A DNA stretch of 42,351 nt from Escherichia phage vB_EcoM-ep3: the sequence record NC_025430.1; one strand, given 5' to 3'. The notes under the pieces were generated by a model that saw nothing but the letters and a program-made list of their open reading frames with translations, was not told the DNA's origin and ran no database searches. This document shows, in pieces, positions 1-42,351 of this stretch. Within the stretch, counting starts at the first letter, position 1. Each line of letters opens with the position of its first letter. The translations under genes were made by a program, and so were the position numbers.

Positions 1-27
1 AAAAAAAAACCCCGCCATAACGGCGGG
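1..27 (-). terminator. intrinsic terminator downstream of ssb
   Basis: Hairpin CCCGCC-ATAAC-GGCGGG (11-27) preceded on + strand by A9 (1-9), i.e. followed by a U-run on the - strand transcript; lies just 3' of the SSB stop. A near-identical hairpin recurs at 42328-42344. Confidence 0.7.
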
Positions 28-51
28 TTGATTACTTAGAATGATTTGGAA

Positions 52-537
52 TTAAAACGGGATGTCATCGTCAAAATCCATCGGCGGTTCGTTCGCTGGT
101 GGTTTCTGTTGGCCGCTGTGGGTTGGCTGCTGCGGCTTACCCCATCCGCCTTGCTGGCCGCCCTGGCTTTGCCCACCGGCCTGGTTATCGTTGGCCGCTG
201 ACAGCATCAACAACCGGCCATTCATGCCCACCACGATTTCAGTTGTGTAGCGATCAACGCCAGCCTGGTCCTGCCACTTGCGCGTTTGCAGCGCGCCTTC
301 AATGAACACCTTGCTGCCTTTGCGCAGGTACTGGCTGGCGATTTCTGCCAGCTTTCCGAAGATGACCACGCGGTGCCATTCCGTTTTTTCTTTCTTCTCC
401 CCTGTCTGCTTATCCTTCCAGGTTTCAGACGTGGCAATTGATAACTGCGCCACGCCGTTGCCGTTCGGCAGCGTGCGGAATTCTGGATCGTTGCCTAAGT
501 TGCCAATGATTTCTACTTTGTTCAGTGAACCGGCCAT
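52..537 (-). CDS. ssb: single-stranded DNA-binding protein
   Basis: 161-aa ORF; SSB-like N-terminal region, Gly/Gln-rich linker ([15 protein letters not shown]) and acidic C-terminal tip DFDDDIPF typical of bacterial and phage SSB. Confidence 0.93.
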
Positions 538-545
538 AATTGCCC

Positions 546-755
546 CTATTTACGTTTTAAGTGTGCGGCGTGGTCGTTGGCACAATCCGCATCGCAATAA
601 ATTTTCTTGCTGCCTTCCGGGAAATCTTCACCACAGTTCAGGCAGTAACCACGCGCAACAGCTTTAACCGCTGGTGCCTTCTGGAGATGCGCGGCAATCA
701 TCGCCGCGCGTTCCTGTTCTTCACGCTCGCAAGCGCGGTCAATATCATCAGCCAT
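546..755 (-). CDS. TraR/DksA-family C4 zinc-finger protein
   Basis: 69 aa; C-terminal CLNCG...CDADC four-cysteine arrangement as in phage TraR-like proteins; tightly packed in the leftward operon. Confidence 0.6.
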
Positions 756-1143
756 GTTCTGCCACCGTGCATTTTGGATGGTGGAAGCCGTCCTGGTGCT
801 GGCACACAGGGCAGCAATCGCGCGGCTGTTCGTTGTCGTTACCAGCTACCGGATGGCGGCCACGTTCCAGCGCGATGACCGCGCCAGCCAGGTAGTTGAT
901 TGCGCCTAACAGTTCCGCCACATCGCGGCCCGCTGGAAGGCGCTGTGATTCCTGCGCTTTCTTCGCTGCCTGGCCGAGTGCGAACCCTGGCCCGTACAGG
1001 TCAATCAGTTTTTGCATGGGCTGCTGGTCAAACGGCTTGTTTACCGCGTGACGTTCGTGGCCTTTGCCACTGGCAGCCTGCGCAAATGCCCGGTCAAGTA
1101 CATCGCGCAGTGATTCATATCCGTTAGCGGGTGGTCGTGTCAT
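748..1143 (-). CDS. hypothetical protein
   Basis: 131-aa ORF in the leftward operon, 8-bp overlap with the downstream gene; Cys/His-rich C-terminus (CCPVCQHQDGFHHPKC); no family recognised by eye. Confidence 0.5.
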   Translation of the reverse strand: MTRPPANGYESLRDVLDRAFAQAASGKGHERHAVNKPFDQQPMQKLIDLYGPGFALGQAAKKAQESQRLPAGRDVAELLGAINYLAGAVIALERGRHPVAGNDNEQPRDCCPVCQHQDGFHHPKCTVAEHG

Positions 1144-1351
1144 TGTCGTTTGCTCCGATCATGTGTTTTGCTTCATACGCTTCCACGCTGGTGATGGAGT
1201 AGCGAACGCGTGAGCCAAATTTTGTATAGGCTGGCCCTTTACCTTTGTTGCGCCAGTTCGCCAGGGTTCCGGTGGTAACTGCGCCATTCCAGCGCAGCAC
1301 CAGTTCCTGTGGCGTCAGATACGTGCTTTGTTTCTGTGCCGGTTGTGCCAT
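1124..1351 (-). CDS. helix-turn-helix DNA-binding protein (AlpA/excisionase-like)
   Basis: 75 aa; segment LTPQELVLRWNGAVTTGTLANWRNKGKGPAY resembles AlpA/Xis-type HTH proteins; overlaps neighbours by 20 and 0 bp. Confidence 0.55.
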   Translation of the reverse strand: MAQPAQKQSTYLTPQELVLRWNGAVTTGTLANWRNKGKGPAYTKFGSRVRYSITSVEAYEAKHMIGANDNDTTTR

Positions 1352-1364
1352 TTTTTACCCTTTC

Positions 1365-2354
1365 TTACTGTGCGCCGGTGCCCATCACCTGGCTGTTTAA
1401 ATCATCAACGTCCTGCGCATCGCCGTTTGCGTTGGCGCGCTGTTCGTCATATGCGCGGGCGGCTTGCAACAATGATTGTTTGAATTCATCGCCCAGCTTT
1501 TTGCGAATTGCTGGTGGGGTTTTGTCCCAGCATTCCTGCGTGTACTGCTCACCCTGTTCGGTAACGCCGCGCAGCTTGTTGCGGTAGGCTTCCACCTTCG
1601 GATCTAACTTGTTGCCACCCTGAACCCACTGACGCAGCGCCAAACCGTCCTGTGCGCTGATGTAGCCAGTTTCACGTCCTAAGATGCCGCGCAATTCTTC
1701 CGGGCACTTCATGACCTGCTGCGCGCTGCCAGAATCCCACATCATCAGGCTGGCGGTCATTTCAAACATCACGTTCTTTTCCGTCACCGGCATGATGCCT
1801 TGCGGTTCATATTCCGTTTTACCGTTGACCTTCACCAGTTTCACTTTTTCACGTGCGCGGATGCAGCAGATGATGTGCATGTTGGATTGCAGCAACGCGT
1901 TCATGAATCGCTTGTGTTCAGCCTTCGCACGGTTCCACTGTGGCTTCATCGGGTTGGCCAGGGTGGCGATTTCTTCGCAGCCGCCTGTTCCTTCCCATTC
2001 GTGCGAAATGCTATCAATCACCAGCACTTCAACGCCTGCCTGTTCAAATTCGCGGATGGCGTCAATGTATCGCTGCGGGCTGAAAGGCGGTTCTAAATCG
2101 CCAATCCAAAACGCGTCCGGGCGTTCTTTCAGTCCAAGTGATTCCTGGATTTTTTCATAAGTGTCATCACTGGCATACAGTGAGCCACGGCGGTTTTCAG
2201 TATCGAGAAAGCCAACCTTTGTGCCGTCACCGTTAGCCAGGCCATATGCCAGCATAAGTGCTGACAGGGTTTTGCCGCTGCCGCTGATACCTGCCAGGCC
2301 GATTACCAGGCGCGCGCCTTCACGTTCTGCCTTACGAATATTAATTACTGCCAT
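1365..2354 (-). CDS. AAA-family ATPase (RecA-fold, Sak4/AAA_24-like)
   Basis: 329 aa; Walker A GLAGISGSGKT, Walker B-like hydrophobic stretch VLVIDSISHEW; sits between exonuclease and SSB as in phage recombination modules. Confidence 0.75.
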   Translation of the reverse strand: MAVINIRKAEREGARLVIGLAGISGSGKTLSALMLAYGLANGDGTKVGFLDTENRRGSLYASDDTYEKIQESLGLKERPDAFWIGDLEPPFSPQRYIDAIREFEQAGVEVLVIDSISHEWEGTGGCEEIATLANPMKPQWNRAKAEHKRFMNALLQSNMHIICCIRAREKVKLVKVNGKTEYEPQGIMPVTEKNVMFEMTASLMMWDSGSAQQVMKCPEELRGILGRETGYISAQDGLALRQWVQGGNKLDPKVEAYRNKLRGVTEQGEQYTQECWDKTPPAIRKKLGDEFKQSLLQAARAYDEQRANANGDAQDVDDLNSQVMGTGAQ

Positions 2355-2381
2355 TGTTTTTAGTCTCTTAGGTGATGAAAA

Positions 2382-3524
2382 TTAAGCCGCACCAACCAGG
2401 TGGGCGTTTTTGTTGGCGTGCCACGCTGGCAGGCTGATGGTCTGGATTTTATCGCCGTATCCAGGCCAAACACCTGTGCGCACGCATTCAGCGTAGACAC
2501 GCAAATCATGCTGGTATTGTGCGCGGCCAATTTCTACGCCTTCGCTATCCAGTACATAAACACCAACTGCGTAAGGCGGTTTTTTCTCAACGGCGATAAA
2601 CGCAAAGTGTTTAGGATAACCACGCCAGAAATCAGGGCGGCAGCGGCACAGAACACCGGTCACCGGATCAGTCCAGTAAACTGATAATTCTGCTTTGCCT
2701 TCGTGCGGAGGCGTGCACTTGCCCTGTTCCAGAGCCAGACGCGTGCCGTCCATGTAGTATGCGTGTTGCACGTCATAGCGCCAGTTGGCGATTGATTTTG
2801 CGAACCCTTCCGGGCTGGCATCTTCGGTGGTTTTCAAGTCACCAATGATGTCTTTGACGTGGTGCAGGATAGCGAACGCTGCCGGATGATTCATTACCGC
2901 GTCACGCATGGCAAAAATTTGTTCAAACGCTTCCGGTGATAGCACTTTGCGTTCGCTGTTATTGCGCTGCCATTCTTCCAGCACATCTGACCACAGTGTG
3001 ACTTCAACGCCGTTGGCGCGCAGCAGGTTGGCCAGCTCATGACGGCTGCCGCTGGTGGATAGTTTGCCAGGACGGTCAATATTCAACTGGTTGATGATTT
3101 CTTTCAGGTCTGGCGCTTTCATCGCGTTAAGCTGTTCAGTAGTCCAGGTTTCAACAGGCTGGTTTTCCAGGATGCGTTCAACCAGTTCGCCTTTGTTGCC
3201 ACCAGTCAGCAGCTTAGGCAGGCGGCCTTCGTTCAGCTTGTTGACCATTTCCACCAGCACTTCACGGTCATCAATAGCATCAGGCACATCAGGACGGCGC
3301 AGCGCCAGGCAATAGGTTTTTGCGAATTCTTCCGGTTCAAGAATTGCCATATGCACAGCCGTGCCGATTTCCTGCGCTGGTGTTGGCGTGCGGTCATTAG
3401 CAGCAGTCACAACAGCGTTGTAGTGCATCGGGCTGCGGTGCACCAAATCCAGGCCAGATTTACTGATGCCTGGTCCGCCGTGGTATTCAGCGTTGGGAAT
3501 ACCTTCGTAAACTCCTGGTTTCAT
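2382..3524 (-). CDS. PD-(D/E)XK-type nuclease (phage exonuclease-like)
   Basis: About 380 aa; N-terminal GIPNAEYHGG...SKSGL motif typical of phage RecB/Cas4-like exonucleases; start moved to ATG at 3524 (MKPGV) with GAGG 8 nt upstream, rather than the longer ORF-track start at 3539. Confidence 0.7.
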   Translation of the reverse strand: MKPGVYEGIPNAEYHGGPGISKSGLDLVHRSPMHYNAVVTAANDRTPTPAQEIGTAVHMAILEPEEFAKTYCLALRRPDVPDAIDDREVLVEMVNKLNEGRLPKLLTGGNKGELVERILENQPVETWTTEQLNAMKAPDLKEIINQLNIDRPGKLSTSGSRHELANLLRANGVEVTLWSDVLEEWQRNNSERKVLSPEAFEQIFAMRDAVMNHPAAFAILHHVKDIIGDLKTTEDASPEGFAKSIANWRYDVQHAYYMDGTRLALEQGKCTPPHEGKAELSVYWTDPVTGVLCRCRPDFWRGYPKHFAFIAVEKKPPYAVGVYVLDSEGVEIGRAQYQHDLRVYAECVRTGVWPGYGDKIQTISLPAWHANKNAHLVGAA

Positions 3525-3575
3525 TATGTTACCTCGCAATTATTATTTAACATGAATTCGGATTAACTGCGGTGA

Positions 3576-3605
3576 ATTATGGCTGACGTGTTGTTATACT
3601 GTCAA
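3576..3605 (-). promoter_or_regulatory. candidate sigma70 promoter of the leftward early operon
   Basis: On the - strand: TTGACA (rc of 3600-3605), 18-nt spacer, CATAAT (rc of 3576-3581); about 45 nt upstream of the exonuclease start. Confidence 0.45.
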
Positions 3606-3662
3606 CTTATTTGTAACTAACATTGTTTAGATCAGCGTCACGCTCGCTAATCAACAAACCTT

Positions 3663-3714
3663 AGCTGTACATCAGCTATGCGTTTTTTGCACATCGCGGC
3701 TTGATTGACGTCAA
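3663..3714. promoter_or_regulatory. palindromes in the divergent intergenic region (candidate operators)
   Basis: AGCTG-N5-CAGCT at 3663-3677 and perfect 10-bp palindrome TTGACGTCAA at 3705-3714, between the two divergent promoters. Confidence 0.35.
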
Positions 3715-3730
3715 TGAACATTACTACTGG

Positions 3731-3760
3731 TTGCAACGTCGCCATGTAGTAACATACAAT
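3731..3760 (+). promoter_or_regulatory. candidate sigma70 promoter of the rightward operon
   Basis: TTGCAA (3731-3736), 18-nt spacer, TACAAT (3755-3760); about 40 nt upstream of the helicase start. Confidence 0.4.
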
Positions 3761-3797
3761 TGCGAATACTTTAAATGATGGCGAATGAACGATAATT

Positions 3798-5216
3798 ATG
3801 GGCGTAATACTTAGGGACTATCAATCCGACATTATCAATAAGGCGCGCCTTTCTATGCGGCGCAACCGCCGCGTGTTATTGCAGGCACCAACAGGCGCGG
3901 GCAAAACTGCGCTGGCGTCATACATGGCTGGGGAAACATCGGCCAAAGGCCAGCAGGTGTGGTTTATTTGCCACCGCGCTGAACTGGTATTACAGACCAG
4001 TTTGACATTCAGGAAGTTCGGCATTGACCACGGCTTTATTGCCGCAGGCTATCCCATGAACCTGCGCGCCGGGGTGCAGGTGTGCAGCATCGACACCCTG
4101 AAAAACCGCCTGCACACCCTGCCAGCTCCTAAGCTGGCCATCATGGACGAAGCGCACCACTGTGGCGCGGCTGGATGGGCGCGCGTCAACGCCTGGCTGT
4201 TCGAGAATGGCGCGTATGTAATCGGCCTGTCAGCCACGCCAAAGCGCCTGGACGGCACCGGCCTGGATGACCACTTTGATGACATCGTGTTGGGGCCATC
4301 GGTGCGCTGGCTGATGGATAACGGCCACCTGTCTGATTATCGCATGTTCTGCCCGGACATCCCTGACATGAAGGGTGTACGCAAACAGATGGGCGATTTC
4401 TCAAAAGGAGAAACCGCCGAGAAGATGGATAAGCCGAAACTAACCGGCAACATCATCAGCCACTGGCTGAAATACGCCAGGGGCATGAAAACGGTTGGCT
4501 TTGCGGTCAACATCGCGCACAGCCGCCACTTAACGCAGGCATTCATTGATTCAGGCATCCGCGCCGCGCACCTGGATGGCGGCACCGATAAGGCGGAACG
4601 CAAGCGCATCATTCAGGACTATGCCAACGACAACCTGGATGTGATTTTCAACGTGTCGCTGTTCGGTGAAGGTTTCGACCTGTCAGCTATCGCACAGACT
4701 GACGTGACGATTGACTGCCTGATTGACGCGCAGCCCACACAATCATTGTCGCTGGTTTTGCAGAAAGATGGCCGCGTGTTGCGACCGTCCAAAGGCAAAA
4801 CCGCCATCATCCTGGACCACGCAGGCAATGCGCTGCGTCATGGCTTCCCTGACGATGAACGGGAATGGTCACTGGCTGGCGATGATAGCGGCAGCAAATC
4901 CAGCAGTGCTGGTGGTCCACCGCCGCCAGTCATCTGCAAAGGCTGTTTCAACGCCATCCGCCGACCACTGCCGCCGAAGTGCCCGCACTGCCAGAAGGAA
5001 CTACAGGCCGAAGCCAAAGAAATTGAAGTGGCAGAAGGAGAACTGCGCGAAATGGACGAACGCGCCAAAGAAAGCCTGCGCGCCAAGATGAGGCGCGAGG
5101 AGGACGCTTGCAAGGATATTGGCGCACTTACTGCCCTGGCGATGAAACGCGGGCTGCCGAACCCATCAGGGTGGGCCATAGCGAAGATGGGTGGAAGAAG
5201 ATTTAAGCGCAAATAG
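3798..5216 (+). CDS. superfamily-2 DNA helicase with C-terminal zinc ribbon
   Basis: 472 aa; motif I LLQAPTGAGKT, motif II AIMDEAHH (DEAH-like), GLSATP motif III, C-terminal CKGCF...CPHCQ zinc ribbon. Confidence 0.85.
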   Translation: MGVILRDYQSDIINKARLSMRRNRRVLLQAPTGAGKTALASYMAGETSAKGQQVWFICHRAELVLQTSLTFRKFGIDHGFIAAGYPMNLRAGVQVCSIDTLKNRLHTLPAPKLAIMDEAHHCGAAGWARVNAWLFENGAYVIGLSATPKRLDGTGLDDHFDDIVLGPSVRWLMDNGHLSDYRMFCPDIPDMKGVRKQMGDFSKGETAEKMDKPKLTGNIISHWLKYARGMKTVGFAVNIAHSRHLTQAFIDSGIRAAHLDGGTDKAERKRIIQDYANDNLDVIFNVSLFGEGFDLSAIAQTDVTIDCLIDAQPTQSLSLVLQKDGRVLRPSKGKTAIILDHAGNALRHGFPDDEREWSLAGDDSGSKSSSAGGPPPPVICKGCFNAIRRPLPPKCPHCQKELQAEAKEIEVAEGELREMDERAKESLRAKMRREEDACKDIGALTALAMKRGLPNPSGWAIAKMGGRRFKRK

Positions 5217-5320
5217 TAGAGTAATTAATAGGTATAACCGATTGGCGATATTTACCAAAGGAAATGTATAGTTATTTCACCGGCACACAGGTGCCCAACA
5301 ACAAAAGAGGAAACACCCAA

Positions 5321-5989
5321 ATGGCACGTTTAACCGCTGCAATCCGTGATGGCATCATTGCCAACGCAATCAAAACCAAAGACTTTGCAGGCCGTGACAT
5401 GGCTATTGTTCAGAAGCGCGCTGATTTTGCTGAACGTCTGCGCAAGTATGCGCTTGCACAATATGGCCTTACTGATGCGCGCCTTATTGAAATTAAAAAG
5501 CAGATTGAAGAACTGCAAAACGAAGTTAAGCACGAAGGAGCAAGGTTCGTTCGAATTACTTTTGACTCAACTAACCGTGCTTGGGATGTGAACCTGGCAG
5601 GACAGGCGCGCAGGCTTTATCTTGATGGTACTTGTTCAGGGGAAAGCGTAAAACCGCTTTATAGTGATTCACGCGTAGAATACAGCGACGATAAAATTAC
5701 TCCACATTTCCATGAATCTGATTTCACAGTGCGCGATCCTAAATGGCGCGAAGAACTGGACGCCATTGACCTGGAAGCGGCGCAACTGCGTGAAGAATAC
5801 AACACGCTTAAATCAACACTGGCAGCGACAATTTCAGGATTCACGACGGTGGAAAAACTTCTGGAAGCCTGGCCAGACGCGAAAGAACTGATTCCAGAAA
5901 CAACGCCGATTGCTAAACATCCAGGAACAGGCATTGCGCTGTCGGTAGCTGAACTTAACGCGCTGTGTGGAATTCCTACCGGAAAATAA
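5321..5989 (+). CDS. hypothetical protein
   Basis: ORF trimmed to ATG 5321 (MARLTAAIRD) with AAGAGG 10 nt upstream; coding-like composition, coiled-coil-like central region; no family recognised. Confidence 0.55.
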   Translation: MARLTAAIRDGIIANAIKTKDFAGRDMAIVQKRADFAERLRKYALAQYGLTDARLIEIKKQIEELQNEVKHEGARFVRITFDSTNRAWDVNLAGQARRLYLDGTCSGESVKPLYSDSRVEYSDDKITPHFHESDFTVRDPKWREELDAIDLEAAQLREEYNTLKSTLAATISGFTTVEKLLEAWPDAKELIPETTPIAKHPGTGIALSVAELNALCGIPTGK

Positions 5990-6032
5990 CAAACAATGCC
6001 CGGTGCGCCGGGCAGTTCTCACAGGTGACACC

Positions 6033-6425
6033 ATGAAAAAACTTATCATCGCCGCTTTCATCCTGGCGGCCACCAGCGTCACTGCACAGGCGCGCGAATG
6101 TCTGCCAGGCATGGACCCGGCAAAAGACAACTGCCAGGTGACGGAAGAACAGGAACCGGCACCACAGCCGGAATTACAGGACGTTGACCAGGTTTACTAC
6201 TGCCTGGAACTGCAAAAAATCGCCGTCAAAATCGCTGAACTGCGCGACAAAGGCGCAGGCGAACAGGGCGTGGTCACACTGCTGGCTAACAACAACCAGA
6301 ACCGCATCATTTGGGTGGCGCGCCAGGTGTTCTGGCCGCAATCGGCAAGCCTTCGTCCTGAACAAATCGGCCTGCGTGTGTGGATGCGCTGCAATTCTGG
6401 TGAATATCCGGGAGCCGTCAAATGA
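6033..6425 (+). CDS. putative secreted/periplasmic protein
   Basis: Start trimmed to MKKLIIAAFILAATSVTAQA, a typical Sec signal peptide with AQA cleavage motif; about 130 aa. Confidence 0.55.
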   Translation: MKKLIIAAFILAATSVTAQARECLPGMDPAKDNCQVTEEQEPAPQPELQDVDQVYYCLELQKIAVKIAELRDKGAGEQGVVTLLANNNQNRIIWVARQVFWPQSASLRPEQIGLRVWMRCNSGEYPGAVK

Positions 6426-6529
6426 AACTGTTCCTGCGTGGCGTCCTGGCGATGCTGCATGATGAATTATTCTGGCTGCTGGTGGTGCTGGCCGCCTGTG
6501 CTTACCTGGTGGGGGTTATCTATGGCTAA
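6422..6529 (+). CDS. small hydrophobic membrane peptide (35 aa)
   Basis: ATG at 6422 to TAA at 6527-6529, frame checked: MKLFLRGVLAMLHDELFWLLVVLAACAYLVGVIYG; below the ORF-track size cutoff; its stop overlaps the start of the next gene. Confidence 0.35.
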   Translation: MKLFLRGVLAMLHDELFWLLVVLAACAYLVGVIYG

Positions 6530-6932
6530 CAAAGAACACGCGTTGCAGAACGCAATCCGCAACGCACTGGCGGGTCGCTGCCTGCTGTTTCGCGCCAACG
6601 TGGGCAAGGCGTACACCAGCAATGACGTGGTGAAGGTGCCGCGCCAGATGCCGGTTGTGATGGGGCCGCGTGACGTGCTGCTGAAAAACGCCAGGCCGTT
6701 TGACACCGGGCTGCCGCCAGGGTTTTCCGACCTGTTCGGCCTGGTCAGTGTAGAAATCACACCTGACATGGTGGGGCAGAAAGTGGCCATCTTCACCGGC
6801 CTGGAAGTCAAAGACGGTGCCCGCGTGTCACCATTGCAGCGAAACTTCATCAACGCGGTGAACGACAACGGGGGCCGCGCCGGTGTTGTGCGGTCAGTGG
6901 ATGACGCTGAAAAACTGGTGTTCGGAAAATGA
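6522..6932 (+). CDS. VRR-NUC domain nuclease
   Basis: Start trimmed to MANKEHALQNAIRNALAG; conserved-looking GFSDLFG...EVKDGARVSPLQRNFINAV region resembles VRR-NUC (PD-(D/E)XK) proteins. Confidence 0.7.
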   Translation: MANKEHALQNAIRNALAGRCLLFRANVGKAYTSNDVVKVPRQMPVVMGPRDVLLKNARPFDTGLPPGFSDLFGLVSVEITPDMVGQKVAIFTGLEVKDGARVSPLQRNFINAVNDNGGRAGVVRSVDDAEKLVFGK

Positions 6933-7007
6933 GCATAAAACACATAGCAGCCGACGCACTGCGCTACAGCGTCGAAACCGGACAATCAATGATGGAGCGG
7001 CTAAACC

Positions 7008-7172
7008 ATGATGACAATAGAAAGCATTCGCAGACTGTTTGCAGAAGCACTGGTGACCAGGAACCACATCACGTTCCTGGCGGCCAAAACGGCAATGTGG
7101 AATCTGAACCGTTACGGCATGTTGACGGCGATTGACGTGGAAAACCTGAAAAAAACGTGGGGTGTTGAATGA
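7008..7172 (+). CDS. hypothetical small protein (54 aa)
   Basis: Frame-checked ORF MMTIESIRRLFAEALVTRNHITFLAAKTAMWNLNRYGMLTAIDVENLKKTWGVE; GGAGCGG upstream; stop overlaps the next start (ATGA). Preferred over the overlapping ORF-track entry 6929..7135. Confidence 0.45.
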   Translation: MMTIESIRRLFAEALVTRNHITFLAAKTAMWNLNRYGMLTAIDVENLKKTWGVE

Positions 7173-7405
7173 ATATTTTCAAAGTAGCAATGCAGCGGCT
7201 GGTTGACGCCTGGAAGTTATCAGCCAGGGAAATCAGCCTGGGTTTTCAAATGGCGCTGGTGCGCGCTGGCTGGCGTCCAAAGGTGCGGTCAATGCAAGTG
7301 GTGCTGGACTATCCGAAGCCAGGGCCACGCCGTTCACGCTTCACCGGCATTGCAGCCATGCGCCGTGAAGCACGCCGCAAACGTAACCGGAGGCACGCAG
7401 CATGA
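7169..7405 (+). CDS. hypothetical protein
   Basis: 78 aa, basic C-terminus; ATGA-coupled to both neighbours. Confidence 0.45.
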   Translation: MNIFKVAMQRLVDAWKLSAREISLGFQMALVRAGWRPKVRSMQVVLDYPKPGPRRSRFTGIAAMRREARRKRNRRHAA

Positions 7406-7626
7406 ACCCGGTAGACTTCATCAAAAAACAAGTCATGGCCGAACTGGTGAAGCAAGGCGCATCACCTGGCACAGCGCAGCACGCGGCTGACTACGCGGCG
7501 CAACAGTACCGCACCACGTCAGCCATCGGCAAAGACCCGTTCGCTGAACTGATACGCCTGGCAGGCGCAATGGCCATGAAGCACCAGGCCGGTTTCCGCT
7601 TCGTGATGCCGCGCGCATCAAAATGA
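7402..7626 (+). CDS. hypothetical protein
   Basis: 74 aa; ATGA overlap with the upstream gene; coding-like composition. Confidence 0.5.
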   Translation: MNPVDFIKKQVMAELVKQGASPGTAQHAADYAAQQYRTTSAIGKDPFAELIRLAGAMAMKHQAGFRFVMPRASK

Positions 7627-7648
7627 CGTAAGATTATTTCAAAAGGTA

Positions 7649-7686
7649 TTTACTTTCGGAAATGCGCCCTGTACTATGGGCGCATT
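7649..7686 (+). promoter_or_regulatory. candidate promoter with overlapping inverted-repeat operator
   Basis: TTTACT (7649-7654), 17-nt spacer, TACTAT (7672-7677); perfect 9-bp inverted repeat AATGCGCCC (7661-7669) / GGGCGCATT (7678-7686) straddles the -10; 20 nt upstream of the HTH gene. Confidence 0.45.
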
Positions 7687-7706
7687 GTTATTACGAGGCT
7701 ATTACT

Positions 7707-7895
7707 ATGGACGAAAGGACCGAACGACTTCACAACATTATGGCTGAACATGGCTTAACCTGCCGCGACGTTGGCCGTTTACTTGGGCGCACTGAACAAA
7801 CGGTGCTTATCTGGCGCTGTAAGGGCGGGAAAGTCATTCCGACCCACCAGCTTGAATTGCTTGAACTGAAACTGAACGCGCAGGCGGAAAAATGA
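7707..7895 (+). CDS. helix-turn-helix transcriptional regulator
   Basis: Trimmed to ATG 7707 (MDERTERL); HTH-like segment LTCRDVGRLLGRTEQTVLIWR; the longer ORF-track start at 7662 lies inside the palindrome. Confidence 0.55.
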   Translation: MDERTERLHNIMAEHGLTCRDVGRLLGRTEQTVLIWRCKGGKVIPTHQLELLELKLNAQAEK

Positions 7896-8122: not shown

Positions 8123-8134
8123 AATCGGGGTTCT

Positions 8135-10565: not shown

Positions 10566-10567
10566 TA

Positions 10568-33903: not shown

Positions 33904-33974
33904 AACAATTGAAGGTAAAGTAAATATGCGTGTATCATTATAAATAACTTTAAGTAATTTAGTGGTGGTGCACG

Positions 33975-34658
33975 ATGAAGAAAGTAACCAAGAGTGAGGC
34001 GATAGAGCAAGGGCTTAATTATTACTTTACTGGTAAGCCATGTAAGCATGGGCACGTCAGCGAAAGGTATATAAAAGGCGGAGCTTGCGTGGCTTGCCAG
34101 AGAATTAAAAGCAAAGAGTTCAGTAAAAACAATGTTGAATCAGAAAGGATTAGGAAGCATCTAGATTATCTTGCGCACAAGGAAGAAAGGAACGAGAGAA
34201 ATAAATCTTGGCAAAAAAGAAACAGGGCAAAAGTCTCAGAGTATGTTGCAAAATGGAGGAAAAAAAACAGGGAGAAGGTGAACGAAATGGCCGCTGAGTT
34301 AAGGCGCAAAAACCCAGAAAAGCAAAAAGAGGCTGACAGGAGATGGAGAGCAAAAAACAAACACAAGGTGGCCAAGAAAGACGGTCTTAAAAGGGCAGCA
34401 AAACTGGCAAGAATTCCAGTTTGGTTTGGTGAATTTGATGATTTTGTGATTCAGGAAGCGCACACGCTGGCAGCGTTAAGAGGTGATGAAACCGGAATAC
34501 CCTGGCACGTTGACCACATGTTGCCAATGAGGGGGAGAAAAATTTCCGGGTTACACTGCGCGCATAATATCCAGGTGATTCCGGCAGCCATGAATGTGAG
34601 AAAAATCAACAAAATGGTTTTGACCAACCCACTAGAGTGGTTACGCGATGGCGTCTAA
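33975..34658 (+). CDS. HNH endonuclease (free-standing, homing-type)
   Basis: 227 aa; N-terminal Cys/His cluster (CKHGH...CVACQ), C-terminal HNH-like motif WHVDHMLP...LHCAHNIQVIPAAMNVRK; lysine-rich middle; AT-rich; inserted between chaperone and tape-measure. Confidence 0.65.
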   Translation: MKKVTKSEAIEQGLNYYFTGKPCKHGHVSERYIKGGACVACQRIKSKEFSKNNVESERIRKHLDYLAHKEERNERNKSWQKRNRAKVSEYVAKWRKKNREKVNEMAAELRRKNPEKQKEADRRWRAKNKHKVAKKDGLKRAAKLARIPVWFGEFDDFVIQEAHTLAALRGDETGIPWHVDHMLPMRGRKISGLHCAHNIQVIPAAMNVRKINKMVLTNPLEWLRDGV

Positions 34659-37005
34659 CAAGAAATTATCTGCAACAATAGTAATTGGCGGTGCCGTATC
34701 CAGCAGCCTGAAAGGCGCATTCAGCACCGTCAAATCTTCCGTTGACCAGGTTGGCGCAGCAATGGCCAAACTGGAACGCGAGCAACGACAACTAACCAAC
34801 GCCATCCAGACGTTTGGCCGCCAGGGCAAAAACGTTGATTCACTGCGCGCCAAGTACGCCGCCAACGTTTCTGCGGTGGACAAACTGCGCGCAGCCACCG
34901 AACGCCTGAAACGCGTGGAGGATGCCCGCGAACGCAACCTGGCGAAGCGCGACCAATACAAAGATGGGATCATGGGCACCATTGCCCTGGGTGCCACTAT
35001 CGCCGCGCCAATCAAAGCCGCGATGGATTTTGAAAGCACCGTTGCCGACATCAAAAAGGTAGTGGATGCGCCGAAGGGTGCCGACGAAGATACTTTCTTC
35101 AAAGCCATCAGCAAACAGGTTTTGGATATGTCCAAAACCCTGCCGATGACGGCCAACGAAATTGGCCGCATCTTTGCGCTTGGCGGCCAGTCTGGCATCG
35201 CAGCCGAAGATTTGGGCAAGTTCACAGAATCAGCCGTAAAAATGGGCGTGGCGTTTGATGTCAGCGCGGAACAGGCTGGCCAGTCAATGGCGGAACTGCG
35301 TTCTGCTTTCGGCATGACGCAAGACCAGGTGAACACGCTGGCCGACCAGATGAACTACCTGGACAACAACGGCAGCGCCGCAGCAAAAGATATTCTGGAA
35401 ATCGTCCAGCGCGTTGGGCCGCTTGGCAAGGTTGCTGGCACTGCTGCCGGTCAGATCGCCGCGATGGCATCAACACTGCGCGGCATGGGTGTGCAGAATG
35501 AAGTTGCCGCAACCGGCATTCAAAACTTCATGCTGGCGCTCACTGCTGGTGATGCTGCCACGAAGTCACAGAGGGCGGCCCTTGCCGAATTAGGCTACGG
35601 TTCACGCGAAGTGGCGAAGTCAATGCAGTTGGATGCGCAAAAAACCATGACGGTGATTCTGAAACAAATCAGAAAACTACCGAAGTGGAAACAGGCGTCA
35701 GCACTAACTGATTTATTCGGCAAAGAGTCGATTAAGGCCATCGCACCACTGCTGGATCAGCTTGAACAGCTTGAAGATAACTTCGCAAAGGTAGCCGACA
35801 AATCGAAGTATGCCGGTTCCATGCAGAAAGAATTTGAAGCGCGCGCGGCCACCACAGCAAACCAGCTTATTTTGTTCCGTAACCAGATCACCGGCCTGGG
35901 CGTCACGATTGGTTCAGTCCTGCTTCCTGCGGTCAACAGCGTCCTGCAAACCGTTGGGCCGTGGATTGGCAAAATCACTGAACTGGCTGACGCGCACCCG
36001 GTTGTCACCAAAGCCATTGTGGCCACGGCTGGCGCACTAATTACCATGCGCATTGCCACGTTTGCGGCTGGCTTCGCTTTCACGTACCTGCGCGGCGGCG
36101 CGCTGCGTGTTGTGGGTGCCCTGGCTGGTGCCCGCGCACAGATGGCACTGACGGCGGTTTCCGCGCGTGCAGTGGGTGCCGCAGCTACCGTGGCCAACGG
36201 CGGCCTGGTGGGCATGGCATCACGTGGAATCCCTGCCGTTGTTACTGGCGTGCGCGCCATCGGTGCGGCGTTCATTTCCACCGGCATTGGTGCCCTGATT
36301 ACCGGCCTGGCGCTTGGCGGCCTGTGGATTTACCGCAATTGGGCTGGCGTCAAAGCGTTCATGACCGGCACTTTGCAGGGCATCCAGCAAGGGTTGCAGC
36401 CTGTTACGGAGAAATTCCAGGCGCTGTGGGATAAGTTAGGACCAGTCAAAACCGCTTTCCAGTGGGTTGCTGACGCTGCTGGCAAGGCGTGGGATTGGTT
36501 CACCAAACTGGCCGAACCGGTGAGCTACAGCGGCGAAGAACTGAAAAAGGCCGGTGACGCTGGCCAGCAGTTCGGCAAGGCGCTGGCGGCAGGTATTGAT
36601 TTTGTGTTGGGGCCGATTCAGTTCCTGATTGATAAGATCATTTGGGTTTCTGACAACATTGGCGCGCTGACGCAAAAAGCCGTTGAGTTCAAAAACAGCG
36701 TTTCTGACATGGCTGGTGGTGCCTGGCAGAAAACGAAAGACTTTTTCAGCAACCCGTTTGGCGATGACGCGCCGCAGGGCAACGCGCTGACGACGCCGCA
36801 GACACCGGCCAGCGCATTGCCAGCGCCTGCCCTGGCGAACCGTGGCGGCAGTACATACACCGACAGCAGCACAACCACCATTCAGGTGACGCAGCGCCCT
36901 GGTGAGAACAACGCAGACCTGGCCAAACGCATTGCCGACGAACAGGAGCGCCGACGCCAAGTGCGCCAGCGCAGCATGATGAATGACGGAGTGACGGCAC
37001 CATGA
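34648..37005 (+). CDS. tail tape measure protein
   Basis: 785 aa; Ala/Gly-rich, long helical composition; position between chaperone and gpU. Confidence 0.9.
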   Translation: MASNKKLSATIVIGGAVSSSLKGAFSTVKSSVDQVGAAMAKLEREQRQLTNAIQTFGRQGKNVDSLRAKYAANVSAVDKLRAATERLKRVEDARERNLAKRDQYKDGIMGTIALGATIAAPIKAAMDFESTVADIKKVVDAPKGADEDTFFKAISKQVLDMSKTLPMTANEIGRIFALGGQSGIAAEDLGKFTESAVKMGVAFDVSAEQAGQSMAELRSAFGMTQDQVNTLADQMNYLDNNGSAAAKDILEIVQRVGPLGKVAGTAAGQIAAMASTLRGMGVQNEVAATGIQNFMLALTAGDAATKSQRAALAELGYGSREVAKSMQLDAQKTMTVILKQIRKLPKWKQASALTDLFGKESIKAIAPLLDQLEQLEDNFAKVADKSKYAGSMQKEFEARAATTANQLILFRNQITGLGVTIGSVLLPAVNSVLQTVGPWIGKITELADAHPVVTKAIVATAGALITMRIATFAAGFAFTYLRGGALRVVGALAGARAQMALTAVSARAVGAAATVANGGLVGMASRGIPAVVTGVRAIGAAFISTGIGALITGLALGGLWIYRNWAGVKAFMTGTLQGIQQGLQPVTEKFQALWDKLGPVKTAFQWVADAAGKAWDWFTKLAEPVSYSGEELKKAGDAGQQFGKALAAGIDFVLGPIQFLIDKIIWVSDNIGALTQKAVEFKNSVSDMAGGAWQKTKDFFSNPFGDDAPQGNALTTPQTPASALPAPALANRGGSTYTDSSTTTIQVTQRPGENNADLAKRIADEQERRRQVRQRSMMNDGVTAP

Positions 37006-37412
37006 CCAGTTTCACGATTTTAACCGGGCAGACCAACATCATGATGATGTTGGGCGGCTTCCAGTTCTGCATCCTTACTGCGGCATATCAGGAACTGAAC
37101 CGCCACAGCGAATATAAGTGGCCATCGCAGCACCGCTTTGGCCTGCGCCCATCATCGCAATTCGTGGGCATCGGAGAGGAAACCATCACCCTGGCTGGCA
37201 TCATTTACCCTGAATACCGTGGCGGGTTTCAGCAGGTGGAGCAAATGCGCAGCATGGCTGGCCGTGGTCAGCCGCTGTTGCTGGTTGATGGCCTGGGCAA
37301 ACTGTGGGGCCGTTGGGTGATTGAAGCTATTGACGAAAAACAATCATTGTTTGCGGCGTTCGGTGCGCCGCGCAAACAGGAATTCAATTTGCAACTGCGG
37401 CGGTTCAACTGA
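37002..37412 (+). CDS. tail protein U (P2 gpU-like)
   Basis: 136 aa; MMMLGGFQFCILTAAYQEL and FVGIGEETITLAGIIYPEY follow the P2 gpU pattern as I recall it. Confidence 0.85.
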   Translation: MTSFTILTGQTNIMMMLGGFQFCILTAAYQELNRHSEYKWPSQHRFGLRPSSQFVGIGEETITLAGIIYPEYRGGFQQVEQMRSMAGRGQPLLLVDGLGKLWGRWVIEAIDEKQSLFAAFGAPRKQEFNLQLRRFN

Positions 37413-37621
37413 TGCAAACTTACATTACCAAAGACGGTGACACGGCGGATTACATCGCCTGGAAATACTACGGCAACCAGGATGCGGGCACCGTGGAAGC
37501 ACTGGTGGACGCCAACAAGGGGCTGGCCGACCGTGGGCCTGTGTTGCCTGCTGGCCTGGTCATCAACCTGCCGGAAATTACGACACCAGCGACCACGCAA
37601 GGTATCAAATTATGGGATTGA
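37412..37621 (+). CDS. tail protein X (P2 gpX-like, LysM-like)
   Basis: 69 aa; DTADYIAWKYYGNQDAGTVEALVDANKGLADRGPVLPAG matches the gpX/LysM-like pattern. Confidence 0.82.
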   Translation: MQTYITKDGDTADYIAWKYYGNQDAGTVEALVDANKGLADRGPVLPAGLVINLPEITTPATTQGIKLWD

Positions 37622-38718
37622 CTGGAATTGCGCCAGCGTTTCGCGTGCTGGCCAACGGCGATGACATCACCGCCAAAATCAATGAACGACTGATAAGCCT
37701 TAGTCTGTCTGACGGCGTGGGGCTGGAATCTGACACGCTGGAAATCAGCCTGGCGGATGATGAACCGGCCAACCCAATCCAGATGCCGGAAACAGGCGCA
37801 GAACTGGAACTGTTCCTGGGCTATGACAACTGGACCCAACGCATGGGCCTGTTTATCTGTGACGAAGTGGAACTGGCTGGCTGGCCAGGCACCATGACCA
37901 TCAGGGCGCGCGCTGCCACCTATGACAAGTCAAAGGGCGGCAAAACCGACCTGCAAACGCAGAAATCACGAAGCTGGACCAAAGGCACGAAGTTTGGCGA
38001 CATGGTGAAGAAGATAGCCAGCGAACACGGCATGGAATCCGCCGTGTCAGAAAGCATGGCCAAAATCACCCTGCCCCACACCGACCAGGCCGATGAATCT
38101 GACCTGAACCTGTTGCTGCGCCTCGCCAAGAAATATGACGGCGTAGTGAAGCCAGCAGGCGGCAAAATCACGGTCACGAAGAAAGGCGAAGGCAAGACGG
38201 CCAGCGGCGAAGAACTGCCAACCATCACGCTGACGGCGCAGGATTGCACCGCATTCAGGCTGACCAGCCAGAAGCGCGAAAACGCAGGCACGGTGGTGGC
38301 TTACTACCAGGTGACGAAGAAGGCCGCGCGCAACGAAGTGAAGGTGGGCGAAGGTGAGCCGGTCAAACGGATTGGCAAATACTACCCGACGCAGGCAATG
38401 GCCCTGGACGCTGCCAAAGCCGAACTGGCCAAGCGCCAGCGCAACCAGGTGACCGTTGCCGTTACGCTGCCGGGTGACCCATCCATTGCCGCAGAATGCA
38501 AACTGGTGCTGGTTGGGTTCCGTGATGGCATTGATGGCGAATGGCTGATTACCCGCGCAGATCACCGGCTGGATGACAACGGCTATTCTTGCGACGTGGA
38601 AGCAACGAAGCCGAACAGCGAAGAAGAACCGAAGGTGGAAGTTATCGAGCGCAAGAAGCCGCAAGAAAGCGACCCGCCTGACGATGATGGCCCTGGGCAC
38701 GTCATCGAAGAAAAATAA
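37612..38718 (+). CDS. tail protein D (P2 gpD-like)
   Basis: 368 aa; N-terminus PAFRVLANGDDITAKINERLISLSLSD matches the P2 gpD pattern; last gene of the tail operon. Confidence 0.88.
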   Translation: MGLTGIAPAFRVLANGDDITAKINERLISLSLSDGVGLESDTLEISLADDEPANPIQMPETGAELELFLGYDNWTQRMGLFICDEVELAGWPGTMTIRARAATYDKSKGGKTDLQTQKSRSWTKGTKFGDMVKKIASEHGMESAVSESMAKITLPHTDQADESDLNLLLRLAKKYDGVVKPAGGKITVTKKGEGKTASGEELPTITLTAQDCTAFRLTSQKRENAGTVVAYYQVTKKAARNEVKVGEGEPVKRIGKYYPTQAMALDAAKAELAKRQRNQVTVAVTLPGDPSIAAECKLVLVGFRDGIDGEWLITRADHRLDDNGYSCDVEATKPNSEEEPKVEVIERKKPQESDPPDDDGPGHVIEEK

Positions 38719-39364: not shown

Positions 39365-40240
39365 ATGGCTACTATCGGGCAACTGTATAAATCAAAACAA
39401 ACCGCAGCAACGCCGCGCAAGGTGTTTTGGGTGCCGCTGGCTGAACTGTATGTGGAAGATGGCTACAACATCCGCGACGTGGACCAGGCGCACGTTGAAG
39501 AATTCCGCGATGCGTACCTGGCCGGTGAATATGTGCCGCCGCTGACCGTGGAAGTGACGCAGCAGGGCATCAAGGTGATTGATGGCCACCACCGCTTTGC
39601 CGGTGCAAAGATGGCCGCAGAAACCGGCCTGGAACTGCGCCTGGAAGTGAACGACATCACCGGCACCAGTGAGGCTGACAAAATCGCGCTGATGGTCACC
39701 AGCAGCCAGGGCAAGCCGCTGGAACCGCTGGAACGCGCCAAAGCCTATTCGCGCCTGAAAGCGCAGGGCTGGACCAATGACGAGATAGCCAAGAAGGTGA
39801 AGCGCAGCCCGTCAGACGTGGCCAACATGCTGGCCCTGGCTGAATGCCCGGAACCCATCAAAGACATGGTGCGCGGTGGCCAGATGTCCTACGTGACCGC
39901 CACCGAACTGACCCGCCAGCACGGCACCGAAGCCGAAGCCGTGGCCGCACAGGCGCTGGAAGAAGCCAAAGCCGCTGGCAAGGATAAAGTAACAAAGAAA
40001 TTCACCGAACCGAAGGCACCAAAAGCGCCGAAGGCCAAGCCGGAAGCAATCCAGCCACCGTTCGGCAAAGACAAGCTGACGCGCCTGGCTGACCTGGCCG
40101 TGCAAATCGAACTGGTCCACAGCGATGAACGCCTGGAAGATGCCGAGCCTGACGAATCCATGACCCTGCGCGCACCTGCTGGCGTGGTGCGTGAATTCAT
40201 GGCGCTGGTGGCTGACTACGTGGGCGGGGTGCCGGAATGA
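39365..40240 (+). CDS. ParB-like nuclease-domain protein
   Basis: 291 aa; N-terminal ParB/Srx-type motif (KVIDGHHRF) plus HTH-like segment (GWTNDEIAKKVKRSPSDVANMLAL); Lys/Ala/Pro-rich linker; no parA nearby. Confidence 0.7.
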   Translation: MATIGQLYKSKQTAATPRKVFWVPLAELYVEDGYNIRDVDQAHVEEFRDAYLAGEYVPPLTVEVTQQGIKVIDGHHRFAGAKMAAETGLELRLEVNDITGTSEADKIALMVTSSQGKPLEPLERAKAYSRLKAQGWTNDEIAKKVKRSPSDVANMLALAECPEPIKDMVRGGQMSYVTATELTRQHGTEAEAVAAQALEEAKAAGKDKVTKKFTEPKAPKAPKAKPEAIQPPFGKDKLTRLADLAVQIELVHSDERLEDAEPDESMTLRAPAGVVREFMALVADYVGGVPE

Positions 40241-40973: not shown

Positions 40974-40998
40974 AGCCCGCCTCTTCGGCGGGCTTTTT
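40974..40998 (+). terminator. intrinsic terminator
   Basis: AGCCCGCC-TCTTC-GGCGGGCT hairpin followed by TTTTT. Confidence 0.8.
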
Positions 40999-41003
40999 GT
41001 TGG

Positions 41004-41030
41004 TGGCGACCCAGGAAGGAATCGAACCTG
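41004..41030 (-). other. tRNA 3'-end-like fragment (T-loop, acceptor 3' strand, CCA); candidate att core
   Basis: - strand reads CAGGTTCGATTCC TTC CTGGGTC G CCA: canonical T-loop, 7-nt acceptor strand, discriminator and CCA, but no matching 5' acceptor strand (GACCCAG) or D/anticodon arms upstream. Confidence 0.5.
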
Positions 41031-41571
41031 TAACATACAGCTTATACTACCTGCCGCAGACGCGCGAGGCGATGAATAAATGGGAAATATTGTTGCGAAA
41101 TGCACTTGCGTGATATAGGATTAAATTGTCAGTTGTAGAGATTCACGCTGTCGAGAGATACACGATGACCGCCGTGAAAGGACGGCACACAACAGGTAAG
41201 AGCATTGAACCCGTAGACCTCGCGGATTTGGTGAAAGGTGCCGCGCATTGCTCTTTCCGTTGTGGTGAATGCGCAGGCTGATGCGCGACCAATGTATAAA
41301 CAGCGCTCATGGCAAGCAGTAACCAATCTGCGCCTCAAGACAGCGTCACTGGTAGTGCGGGCGCTCTAACCAGTAAGCCGGAGTTCAGCACCGGCCACCA
41401 CAACACGCGCCGTGATGCGCTTTTGCGAACACTTCCAACCACCAGGGTGTTACCTCGCAACGTGAAAGCGCATCGCAGTGCGACATTCGCACAGACTGGA
41501 ACTTACCAGACTAGTGATTCCAATAAGGCAGGTGATCTGTATCTCGCATCACAGCGTCACGTGACACAAAA

Positions 41572-41592
41572 CCCCGCTTAGGCGGGGTTTTT
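41572..41592. terminator. bidirectional intrinsic terminator
   Basis: CCCCGC-TTAG-GCGGGG hairpin flanked by ACAAAA upstream and TTTTTCTTT downstream; lies just 3' of the - strand SprT-like gene and at the end of the + strand ORF-poor region. Confidence 0.75.
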
Positions 41593-41598
41593 CTTTGG

Positions 41599-42270
41599 TC
41601 ATTCGTCATCGCCTTCCGGAGTCATCGCGCCATGTTCCGGGCAGTGAGGCGGCCCGACCTCCAACCATTTTTGCGTTACCCGAACCGTGTAGCCGCATTC
41701 CTGGCATTCGCATTTTTTCAGCCTGGTGGTTTGCTTAGGCTTCGCCGTGGACGCACCGCCGACCGGTGCCACTTCGATTTCCTCCCCTTCATCATCGTCA
41801 CCGCCTTCATCCAGGCCGATGCGCAGGCGTGGCACTTTTATGGATATGCCACGGTCAAACGTCAGCTTGGCGTGCGGCATGGGGCCAAGTTCGTCCAGGA
41901 ACGGTTTGACGTACTCTTTGAATTTCTCGCCAGGCGTGGTGGCGGTCATCGGTCCATTCAGGCCAACAGCCTTGCACACAGTGGCAAACGCGCCCTTGTG
42001 GCCACAGTCAAAACCAACGGTGGCGTGCGTCAGTTCGTGCCACAGGTGGTTTGCGACCAGGTACGGTTCCACCTGGTCTGGCATGATGAATATTTCAAAG
42101 GTGTTGTCTGCACTGCACTTGCTGTGCCAGCACTGTGCCGCCGTACTGGACCGCGCGCCGCTGCTGCAAAAGCCAACTGACACCCGGAATTTTGGCATTT
42201 CATAGCCGAATTCTTTAAAACGCGGCGCAAACTTCGCCGCCAAAGCATTTAACCAACCTTCACGGTCCAT
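41599..42270 (-). CDS. SprT-like zinc metalloprotease with C-terminal zinc ribbon
   Basis: 223 aa; HExxH motif (WHELTHA) after a basic N-terminal region, acidic linker, C-terminal CECQECG...HCPEHG zinc ribbon; GAGG RBS and a perfect TATAAT (rc of 42306-42311) upstream on the - strand. Confidence 0.55.
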   Translation of the reverse strand: MDREGWLNALAAKFAPRFKEFGYEMPKFRVSVGFCSSGARSSTAAQCWHSKCSADNTFEIFIMPDQVEPYLVANHLWHELTHATVGFDCGHKGAFATVCKAVGLNGPMTATTPGEKFKEYVKPFLDELGPMPHAKLTFDRGISIKVPRLRIGLDEGGDDDEGEEIEVAPVGGASTAKPKQTTRLKKCECQECGYTVRVTQKWLEVGPPHCPEHGAMTPEGDDE

Positions 42271-42322
42271 ATATATTTCCTCTCAATGCGTTTAAACGTG
42301 TTTAGATTATACAAAGGCAAAG

Positions 42323-42344
42323 AAAAACCCGCCATAACGGCGGG
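42323..42344 (-). terminator. intrinsic terminator for a - strand transcript entering from beyond the window
   Basis: CCCGCC-ATAAC-GGCGGG hairpin (42328-42344) preceded on + by AAAAA; 22-nt near-identical to the terminator at 1-27. Confidence 0.6.
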
Positions 42345-42351
42345 GTGGTTA

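Follow-up and report, generated by a model that had tools for sequence, protein, structure and literature searches.

The myoviruses of the genus Jilinvirus are the closest described systems to the DNA analysed here. Three of them, ep3, ECO1230-10 and ECOO78, are already known to be lytic and to have no integrase (PMC5754474, PMC5539073, PMC11990801), and ECOO78, which was isolated as a lytic phage, has a latent period of 60 min (PMC5539073). According to Humolli et al. 2025, a few Jilinviruses have both lysogeny genes, integrase and cI, in intact form, and in the others these genes are "deteriorated or absent"; the authors termed the lifestyle of the group enigmatic, as even HeidiAbel plaques clear (PMC11990801). 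Decay of the lysogeny genes is ordinary for the group and already documented in the literature. We analysed Escherichia phage vB_EcoM-ep3 in record NC_025430.1, all 42,351 nucleotides of which are referred to here as the window. With a probability of roughly 0.87, the window is the entire genome of the E. coli Jilinvirus myovirus ep3, which descends from temperate ancestors and is now obligately lytic. Our analysis adds three details to what is known: an exact deletion with microhomology at its endpoints that is common to three isolates, a shared cI-less allele suggesting that the repressor went before the integrase, and the finding that a cited E. coli "prophage" of this group is a free, genome-length contig. 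Such detail is of use in choosing phages for therapy, because the integrase was lost stably in an ancestor and is not merely missing from the assembly.

The window matches the published ep3 genome (KM360178; 42,351 bp, 53.35% G+C; PMC5539073, Table 2) in length and in its computed G+C content of 53.347%. We compared two segments of the window (1-14000 and 14001-39000) with 50,697 phage records by megablast. vB_EcoM_ECOO78 matched them at 97.2% and 96.4% identity, with 88% and 87% of the segments aligned (published values for ep3 are 98% identity at 89% coverage, PMC5539073, Table 2), and ECO1230-10 (Jilinvirus CVM10) at 90-91% identity over 74-79%. HeidiAbel (Bas97) and Alux-21 are each about 93% identical to the window, Salmonella phage PT1 92-95%, and Arya and KA2-1 about 79-84%; the HeidiAbel and PT1 alignments span 49-80% of the two segments at 92-95% identity. 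A further Jilinvirus contig, Logan SRR31227328_3124, has integrase, tRNA and cI intact and is 77-89% identical to the window by BLAST. The ECOO78 and ECO1230-10 records are classified as Iiscvirinae; Jilinvirus, and under the ICTV convention for a genus (at least about 70% nucleotide identity over the genome to a classified member) the identities to these two place the window in Jilinvirus. It also has the architecture of the genus: 41-44 kb, lambda-type terminase and portal, a fused protease-capsid, a P2-type contractile tail and divergent early operons.

Gene order in ECOO78 and ECO1230-10 equals that of the window throughout. ECOO78 differs in that about 12% of sequence is unshared, that it carries an endonuclease gene where the window has a gene for a 223-aa protein (41599-42270), and that it is without the HNH open reading frame (ORF) found in the window between tail genes E and T. 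HeidiAbel and PT1 have the head, tail, replication and lysis modules, the iteron cluster and the cos element in common with the window. By contrast, they keep a tRNA-Arg(TCT), a 403-aa integrase and a 180-aa cI-like repressor, of which the window has only scars.

The initial annotation had offered three ALTERNATIVES for the absence of an integrase: a lytic element, a phage-plasmid, or a lysogeny module lying beyond the window. The last does not hold. The last and first bases of the window adjoin each other in alignments with HeidiAbel and with the contig from E. coli isolate USECESBL382, so the window is a complete, circularly contiguous genome. That the window is instead a fragment of an integrated prophage, with integrase and repressor in the flanks outside, is barely credible: the genes are indeed absent inside and a tRNA fragment does lie near one end, but the window ends join seamlessly in relatives, every genome module is present once, the relatives' int and cI positions lie inside the window and carry deletion scars, and length and G+C content match the published complete genome. 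At the join itself, window 42319-42351 and 1-35 form an imperfect direct duplication of about 33 bp of the terminator hairpin 3' of the SSB gene. Its copies differ chiefly in the length of homopolymers, and a single copy is present in HeidiAbel and in the USECESBL382 contig; the duplication is either a genuine pair of terminators in tandem or an overlap left by the assembly. Two other records, those of ECO1230-10 and Alux-21, likewise open just past the SSB gene.

In the relatives that retain them, the lysogeny genes occupy fixed positions. Such a set is carried by relatives 90-93% identical to the window; HeidiAbel, PT1 and two contigs from metagenomes or isolate runs have the tRNA-Arg(TCT), about 300 bp further on the 403-aa integrase (a P4-family tyrosine integrase with Arm-DNA-bind_3 and Phage_integrase domains), and the repressor (HTH plus Peptidase_S24) in the gap between the divergent early operons of the exonuclease and the helicase. 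The tRNA is intact in HeidiAbel, Alux-21, PT1 and Arya. At the corresponding place in the window, DNA alignment reveals a single clean deletion of 1,484 bp (HeidiAbel 22860-24343) that fuses the 3' half of the tRNA to the 3' end of the integrase gene. Everything in between is gone: the other half of the tRNA (5'), the tRNA-int spacer, and codons 1-382 of the integrase. The remaining integrase DNA is 92% identical to HeidiAbel 24344-24416, and in a tblastn search with the relative's integrase, 41048-41110 is the only trace of the protein in the window. The initial annotation had noted a tRNA-fragment att-like site at 41004-41030. The sequence is real and aligns to the 3' half of the relatives' tRNA-Arg, with substitutions already present in the T-stem (41004-41044), and the att interpretation does not survive the comparison. 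Rather, the fragment is, from these alignments, a scar within a phage-borne tRNA gene that was cut by the deletion that removed the integrase, and no leftover of integration.

The deletion endpoints share microhomology at 8 of 10 nucleotides (ACAGCTTAGA / ACCGCTTTGA), which fits illegitimate recombination. The tRNA/integrase junction is identical in the window, ECOO78 and ECO1230-10, and because of this shared junction the deletion is ancestral to the three isolates. Lambda undergoes Int-promoted att deletions, and a deletion made here by the integrase itself would be in keeping with a left endpoint in the tRNA anticodon loop. We regard this origin as the less likely one in view of the microhomology at the endpoints and of an independent deletion in the Enterobacter phage Arya, which ends elsewhere. 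Arya resembles the window's group in having a truncated integrase beside tRNA-Arg; it differs in that the tRNA is intact, integrase residues 330-403 are left and cI is retained. It was reported with an "integrase pseudogene" and plates as lytic (Tikhe et al. 2018, PMC5754474). In both independent deletions, that of the ep3/ECOO78/ECO1230-10 clade and that of Arya, the integrase 3' end is kept over at least 21 codons (window 41048-41113; loci L019 5469-5690 and L018 about 1390-1460). The kept end may overlap another function, for example a promoter or a terminator that serves the convergent minus-strand genes.

The second lysogeny gene is missing as well. Where HeidiAbel has 765 bp containing cI, the window has a divergent early control region of 244 bp, and tblastn with the relative's cI found no trace of the gene in the window. 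Matches to sigma-70-like promoters, as patterns only, point in both directions from this region (3605->3576, 11/12; 3731-3760, 9/12). The same cI-less allele occurs in ECOO78 (100% identity), the USECESBL382 contig (95%), Alux-21 (94.5%) and ECO1230-10 (87%). Alux-21 and the USECESBL382 contig combine it with an intact integrase and tRNA. Because integrase-bearing relatives carry the same cI-less allele, the repressor appears to have been lost before the integrase. Read in this way, loss of the repressor probably came first and made the phage obligately lytic, and the integrase, by then useless, was deleted later in one sub-lineage. The lytic interpretation of the initial annotation is borne out: both lysogeny genes of close relatives are deleted here, and ep3 and its nearest relatives are published as lytic.

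We scanned about 58 ORFs against Pfam, comprising all ORFs taken as genes and the short ones where int used to lie, with many overlapping six-frame ORFs falling outside this set; selected ORFs were also scanned against PHROGs and NCBIfam. No tyrosine or serine recombinase, Peptidase_S24/CI repressor or protelomerase was matched in the Pfam scan, in agreement with the initial annotation, and the profile search for an integrase or repressor among the hypothetical ORFs found neither. ARAGORN detected no intact tRNA in the window, and NCBIfam yielded no further assignment for the primase, for the small HTH proteins or for ORFs without function. The window thus lacks the marks of an integrative phage (a functional integrase, an immunity repressor and integrated occurrence with host flanks) and, as no scanned ORF matches a protelomerase profile, that of an N15-like linear plasmid-prophage.

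Two small HTH proteins bear on whether the phage is still temperate, with the 77-aa or the 75-aa protein acting as a P2-C-like repressor and a host or unrecognised phage recombinase replacing the integrase. The 77-aa protein is the only match to a profile labelled as a repressor (phrog_14341, "transcriptional repressor"), the Xis/AlpA-like HTH_17 gene is kept (its HeidiAbel homologue is annotated "excisionase and transcriptional regulator"), and several ORFs have no assigned function. Yet of the PHROG profile only the HTH third is matched, and both HTH genes also occur in cI+ int+ relatives (the 77-aa homologue in HeidiAbel is Bas97_0049, and relatives have this gene together with cI), so neither stands in for the missing genes. 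None of the scanned ORFs has a recombinase domain, no integrated copy occurs in 5,426 complete E. coli genomes by megablast, and the remnants point to decay and not to replacement. We consider a temperate ep3 very unlikely.

The search of these 5,426 genomes, by megablast with the int locus and the head/baseplate region, returned no Jilinvirus-like prophage. Among the best 120 matches listed for each protein, integrase homologues with at least 70% identity and capsid homologues with at least 80% identity all lie on contigs of at most 44.6 kb. In one-genome-per-species contigs searched with peptide patterns, no occurrence of the HeidiAbel integrase was confirmed, and no integrated close relative or attB could be defined. 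The literature presents AATBGZ010000031.1, the USECESBL382 contig, as the exemplary E. coli Jilinvirus prophage. We find it to be a free contig of 42,429 bp that represents a circularly permuted whole phage genome without host flank; it is broken within the tape measure gene (325 + 456 = 781 residues) and is int+ tRNA+ cI-. It reflects a carrier state, an episome or contamination, and its sequence cannot tell which.

The same contig hints at a phage-plasmid or carrier state, in which ep3 would persist as a non-integrated episome by means of an iteron origin, a P4-alpha-like primase-helicase and ParB segregation, with no need for an integrase. Such a life has further points in its favor: the window has a ParB-like gene (39365-40240), its primase-helicase and iteron cluster are features of an autonomous replicon, and related plasmids of about 9 kb replicate with a 60%-identical primase and an iteron array of their own. 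Other observations speak against it. ParB is equally present in integrase-bearing relatives, so it is no substitute for integration; neither a ParA (Pfam) nor a repressor to silence the lytic genes (tblastn for cI) was found; no PLSDB record contains the genome, the sole plasmid matches being to a 73-bp element; published isolates plaque clear and give no sign of lysogens (PMC11990801, PMC5754474); and the free contig could be contamination or an ongoing lytic infection. The combination expected of P1/SSU5-like phage-plasmids, ParA with ParB and a plasmid record, is reduced here to the ParB-like gene. We regard the phage-plasmid proposal of the initial annotation as improbable and retain the view of ep3 as an obligately lytic descendant of temperate phages.

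Several points weigh against this view. The order of loss, cI first and int second, assumes vertical descent, and recombination among mosaic genomes could mimic the pattern. The int+ cI+ HeidiAbel plaques clear (PMC11990801), and gene content maps imperfectly onto behavior in this group; the lytic behavior of ep3 is itself deduced from gene content and from the published phenotypes of ep3 and its sister phages. One E. coli isolate has, in its assembly, a free contig that is int+ cI-, a hint of non-integrative persistence. Finally, the origin and cos assignments given below are positional.

The replication module has a 769-aa primase-helicase whose sole solved sequence relative is the VapE-like helicase 7pds. 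The initial annotation described a P4-alpha-type primase with matching iterons, a description that is correct for the Toprim homology and for the likeness of the repeats, and fails for the N-terminal and helicase domains, which belong to other families. Like P4 alpha, the protein is a fused primase-NTPase of about 770 aa. In BLASTP, it is 30% identical to P4 alpha over 242 positions, confined to residues 178-419 (E = 1e-18), and outside this Toprim region nothing similar was found in the alpha helicase or in the origin-binding part at its C-terminus. The window protein therefore shares the Toprim of the alpha family and has neither the alpha-type helicase nor the C-terminal origin-binding part by BLASTP. 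It also differs from P4 alpha in an N-terminus that is PriCT-2, with no Zn-ribbon match, and in its VapE-like NTPase.

The rightward early operon is separated from the late activator gene by a non-coding segment of 61% A+T in which GTCACC occurs 8 times where about 0.3 are expected (Poisson p about 1e-9). The position of this cluster is kept in HeidiAbel and ECOO78. Its fuller motif, TGGTCACC, is one position off the type-1 repeat TGTTCACC that we read from the annotated P4 record. The type-1 iterons of P4 ori/crr are likewise short repeats ((T/G)GTCACC here, TGTTCACC there), in both orientations, in a non-coding cluster. A plasmid primase 60% identical to that of the window is paired with 11 copies of a shifted motif, TGACACCT; a shifted motif beside a diverged primase fits cognate recognition of iterons. 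We infer that the window cluster is the replication origin, and the primase plausibly works like P4 alpha, with origin recognition, priming and unwinding in one protein.

Taken together, these features outline a possible infection cycle. With the repressor absent, the divergent early promoters would fire on infection, and the PriCT-2/Toprim/VapE primase-helicase would start replication at the GTCACC iteron cluster. The late activator would then switch on the lysis, head and tail genes, and the lambda-type Nu1/gpA terminase would package DNA from a conserved cos-like element of 73 bp.

Every Jilinvirus genome in the comparison conserves this 73-bp element. Inside it, the two ends of the linear ECOO78 record share an overlap of 13 nucleotides, GGGGCATTGGTCC, and the same candidate cohesive end lies at window 15639-15651. 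Conservation, the ECOO78 end overlap and the lambda-type terminase next door together suggest that the element is the cos site. On the other side, the Arya genome is reported as circularly permuted, contrary to cos.

Copies of the element outside the phages, among them that at locus L026 12002-12070, point to a possible family of satellites. At 93-96% identity and with sharp boundaries, it is found in the circular E. coli plasmids pSCU-121-2 (9,138 bp; copy at 634-706) and pECQ4552_IHU03 (17,382 bp, apparently a dimer). Megablast with pSCU-121-2 returned three further relatives of about 9 kb in E. coli, Salmonella and Proteus, which are known from this similarity and not through the cos element, as the element search of PLSDB did not return them. 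Among the 5,426 complete E. coli chromosomes, 48 have the element, none more than once, at 94.5-98.6% identity. About 1% of complete E. coli genomes have a 9.6-kb island with the element at the 3' end of fis; EF7-18-51, 13P484A and 127 are examples of such strains. With the whole plasmid as megablast query 65 chromosomes were matched, and in the 24 chromosomal matches listed the match starts exactly at the element. The one island that we followed in detail, that of EF7-18-51, is 9.6 kb long, integrated in the 3' end of fis, and flanked by a 17-bp direct repeat spanning the fis stop codon. Its products include an integrase, a small HTH protein and a VapE protein that matches the C-terminal half of the window primase at 65% identity. 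A tape measure of 762 aa is 42% identical to that of the window phage over its full length, and six small ORFs are unassigned; the island also carries TGACACCT repeats and the cos-like element. The plasmid iteron array consists of TGACACCT x11. Besides the cos element, plasmids and islands share with the phage only the primase/helicase (60-65% at the amino acid level) and the tape measure (42%).

In P4 and P2, the satellite copies the packaging signal of its helper; the layout of the plasmids and islands is similar and is known here from sequence alone. We tentatively raise the possibility, which we hold to be the less likely outcome, that the window phage is the helper of an undescribed satellite family whose members supply their own tape measure. 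Because none of the 5,426 complete E. coli genomes searched has a Jilinvirus prophage by megablast, mobilisation of such satellites would fall to a helper that arrives by infection and is mostly virulent. If true, this would provide a tractable E. coli satellite system with a virulent helper and could outweigh the main finding. Our limited literature search, which is no proof of absence, found no description of a satellite with a tape measure gene or of fis-integrated islands.

The coordinates of all features are collected in Table 1.

Table 1. Features of the vB_EcoM-ep3 window (positions in NC_025430.1) and the evidence for each.
Position	Strand	Feature	Evidence
52-537	-	SSB, last gene of leftward early operon	Pfam SSB, E = 9e-39
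1124-1351	-	75-aa HTH_17 protein (MerR/AlpA/Xis-like)	Pfam HTH_17, E = 1.4e-5, just under curated cutoff
1365-3539	-	AAA_24 ATPase (1365-2354) and PDDEXK/DUF3799 exonuclease VIII-like protein (2382-3539)	Pfam
3542-3785		Divergent early control region, 244 bp, at relatives' cI position	BLASTN; replaces HeidiAbel 29075-29839
3798-5216	+	SF2 DNA helicase, first gene of rightward early operon	Pfam ResIII, DEAD, Helicase_C
7662-7895	+	77-aa HTH protein	phrog_14341, E = 1.3e-18, profile positions 1-63 of 184; Pfam HTH_23 weak
8135-10444	+	Primase-helicase, 769 aa, PriCT_2 + Toprim_3 + VapE-like NTPase	Pfam; PDB 7pds VapE-like, E = 1e-18
13192-13448		Iteron-like cluster, 8x GTCACC (TGGTCACC / GTAGTCACC, both orientations); candidate origin	Motif count
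13508-13942	+	Late transcriptional activator	phrog_836; relatives' annotations
within 13508-15551	+	Two holin-position ORFs	Relatives' annotations
14542-15033	+	Endolysin	Pfam Phage_lysozyme
15030-15551	+	Rz-like spanin	Pfam DUF2514
15602-15673		73-bp cos-like element, just 5' of small terminase gene	Conserved in all Jilinvirus genomes compared
15716-16240	+	Small terminase, Phage_Nu1	Pfam
16200-18248	+	Large terminase, GpA_ATPase + GpA_nuclease	Pfam
18255-18794	+	179-aa ORF at lambda W position, no profile match	Position
18794-20350	+	Lambda-family portal	Pfam
20328-22376	+	Peptidase_S78 + Phage_capsid fusion, 682 aa, HK97-type	Pfam
23086-23418	+	Head-tail attachment, Phage_attach (lambda FII)	Pfam
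23405-23959	+	Minor_tail_Z, gpZ-like tail completion	Pfam
24525-25178	+	Baseplate V	Pfam, P2-type
within 24525-31367	+	Two small fibre-associated ORFs	
25232-25570	+	Baseplate W	Pfam, P2-type
25571-26473	+	Baseplate J	Pfam, P2-type
26457-27059	+	Baseplate I	Pfam, P2-type
27060-29303	+	Tailspike, 747 aa	99.9% identical to ECOO78 gp42
29342-30694	+	Tail-collar fibre	Pfam
31494-32921	+	Sheath (FI)	Pfam
32921-33427	+	Tube (FII)	Pfam
33488-33772	+	Tail chaperone E	Pfam
34648-37005	+	Tape measure (T)	Pfam
37002-37412	+	U	Pfam
37412-37621	+	X	Pfam
37612-38718	+	D	Pfam
39365-40240	+	ParB-like protein (ParB HTH), no ParA partner	Pfam HTH_ParB; TIGR00180 below cutoff; phrog_1033
41004-41044	-	Phage tRNA-Arg(TCT) remnant, 3' CCA end to anticodon loop	Aligns to HeidiAbel 22819-22859
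41048-41113	+	Integrase pseudogene remnant, last 21 codons + stop	tblastn, HeidiAbel integrase aa 383-403, 18/21 identical
41599-42270	-	223-aa conserved protein	phrog_6361; 98.7% identical to HeidiAbel Bas97_0032

The head and tail modules are mosaic. The initial annotation saw the lambda order in the head genes, and Nu1, A, B, FII and a Z-like gene do follow in that order. The likeness to lambda packaging extends from Nu1 through the portal; C/Nu3/D/E are not part of it, and in their place the window has an S78 protease and an HK97-type capsid in one fused protein. In P2, gene X sits with the lysis genes. The P2 tail order with X moved between U and D was seen correctly, all P2 profiles being matched in order by Pfam. 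The same combination of terminase, portal, fused capsid and P2 tail is found in integrated E. coli and Salmonella prophages, with a capsid about 69% identical, and these have lambdoid early genes upstream (RusA, Dam, a Q-like antiterminator; for example E. coli JBFQYX010000006.1, a 320-kb contig). Since integrated prophages carry this combination, the head-tail mosaic is a common module set. BLASTN found no match to the 73-bp cos-like element in these module-sharing prophages.

Within these modules, the tailspike is the counterpart of ECOO78 gp42, the capsule depolymerase Dpo42 (PMC5539073), and relatives other than ECOO78 have different receptor-binding genes at its position. Between E and the tape measure gene, the window has an insertion of 765 bp (33892-34656) that is absent from HeidiAbel, ECOO78 and ECO1230-10; Alux-21 has a different ORF at this spot. 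The insertion ORF (33975-34658) encodes 227 aa with an HNH-like motif (HVDH...N...H) and a match to phrog_1035, "endonuclease VII", and is probably a free-standing homing endonuclease. Near the right end of the window, the 223-aa protein has an HExxH motif and a C-terminal Cys cluster, both seen by eye. The early genes also include an Nmad5 (nucleotide modification associated domain 5) protein at 5264-5989 and an N6/N4 DNA methyltransferase at 10568-11545, the latter behaving as variable cargo because its position differs between relatives.

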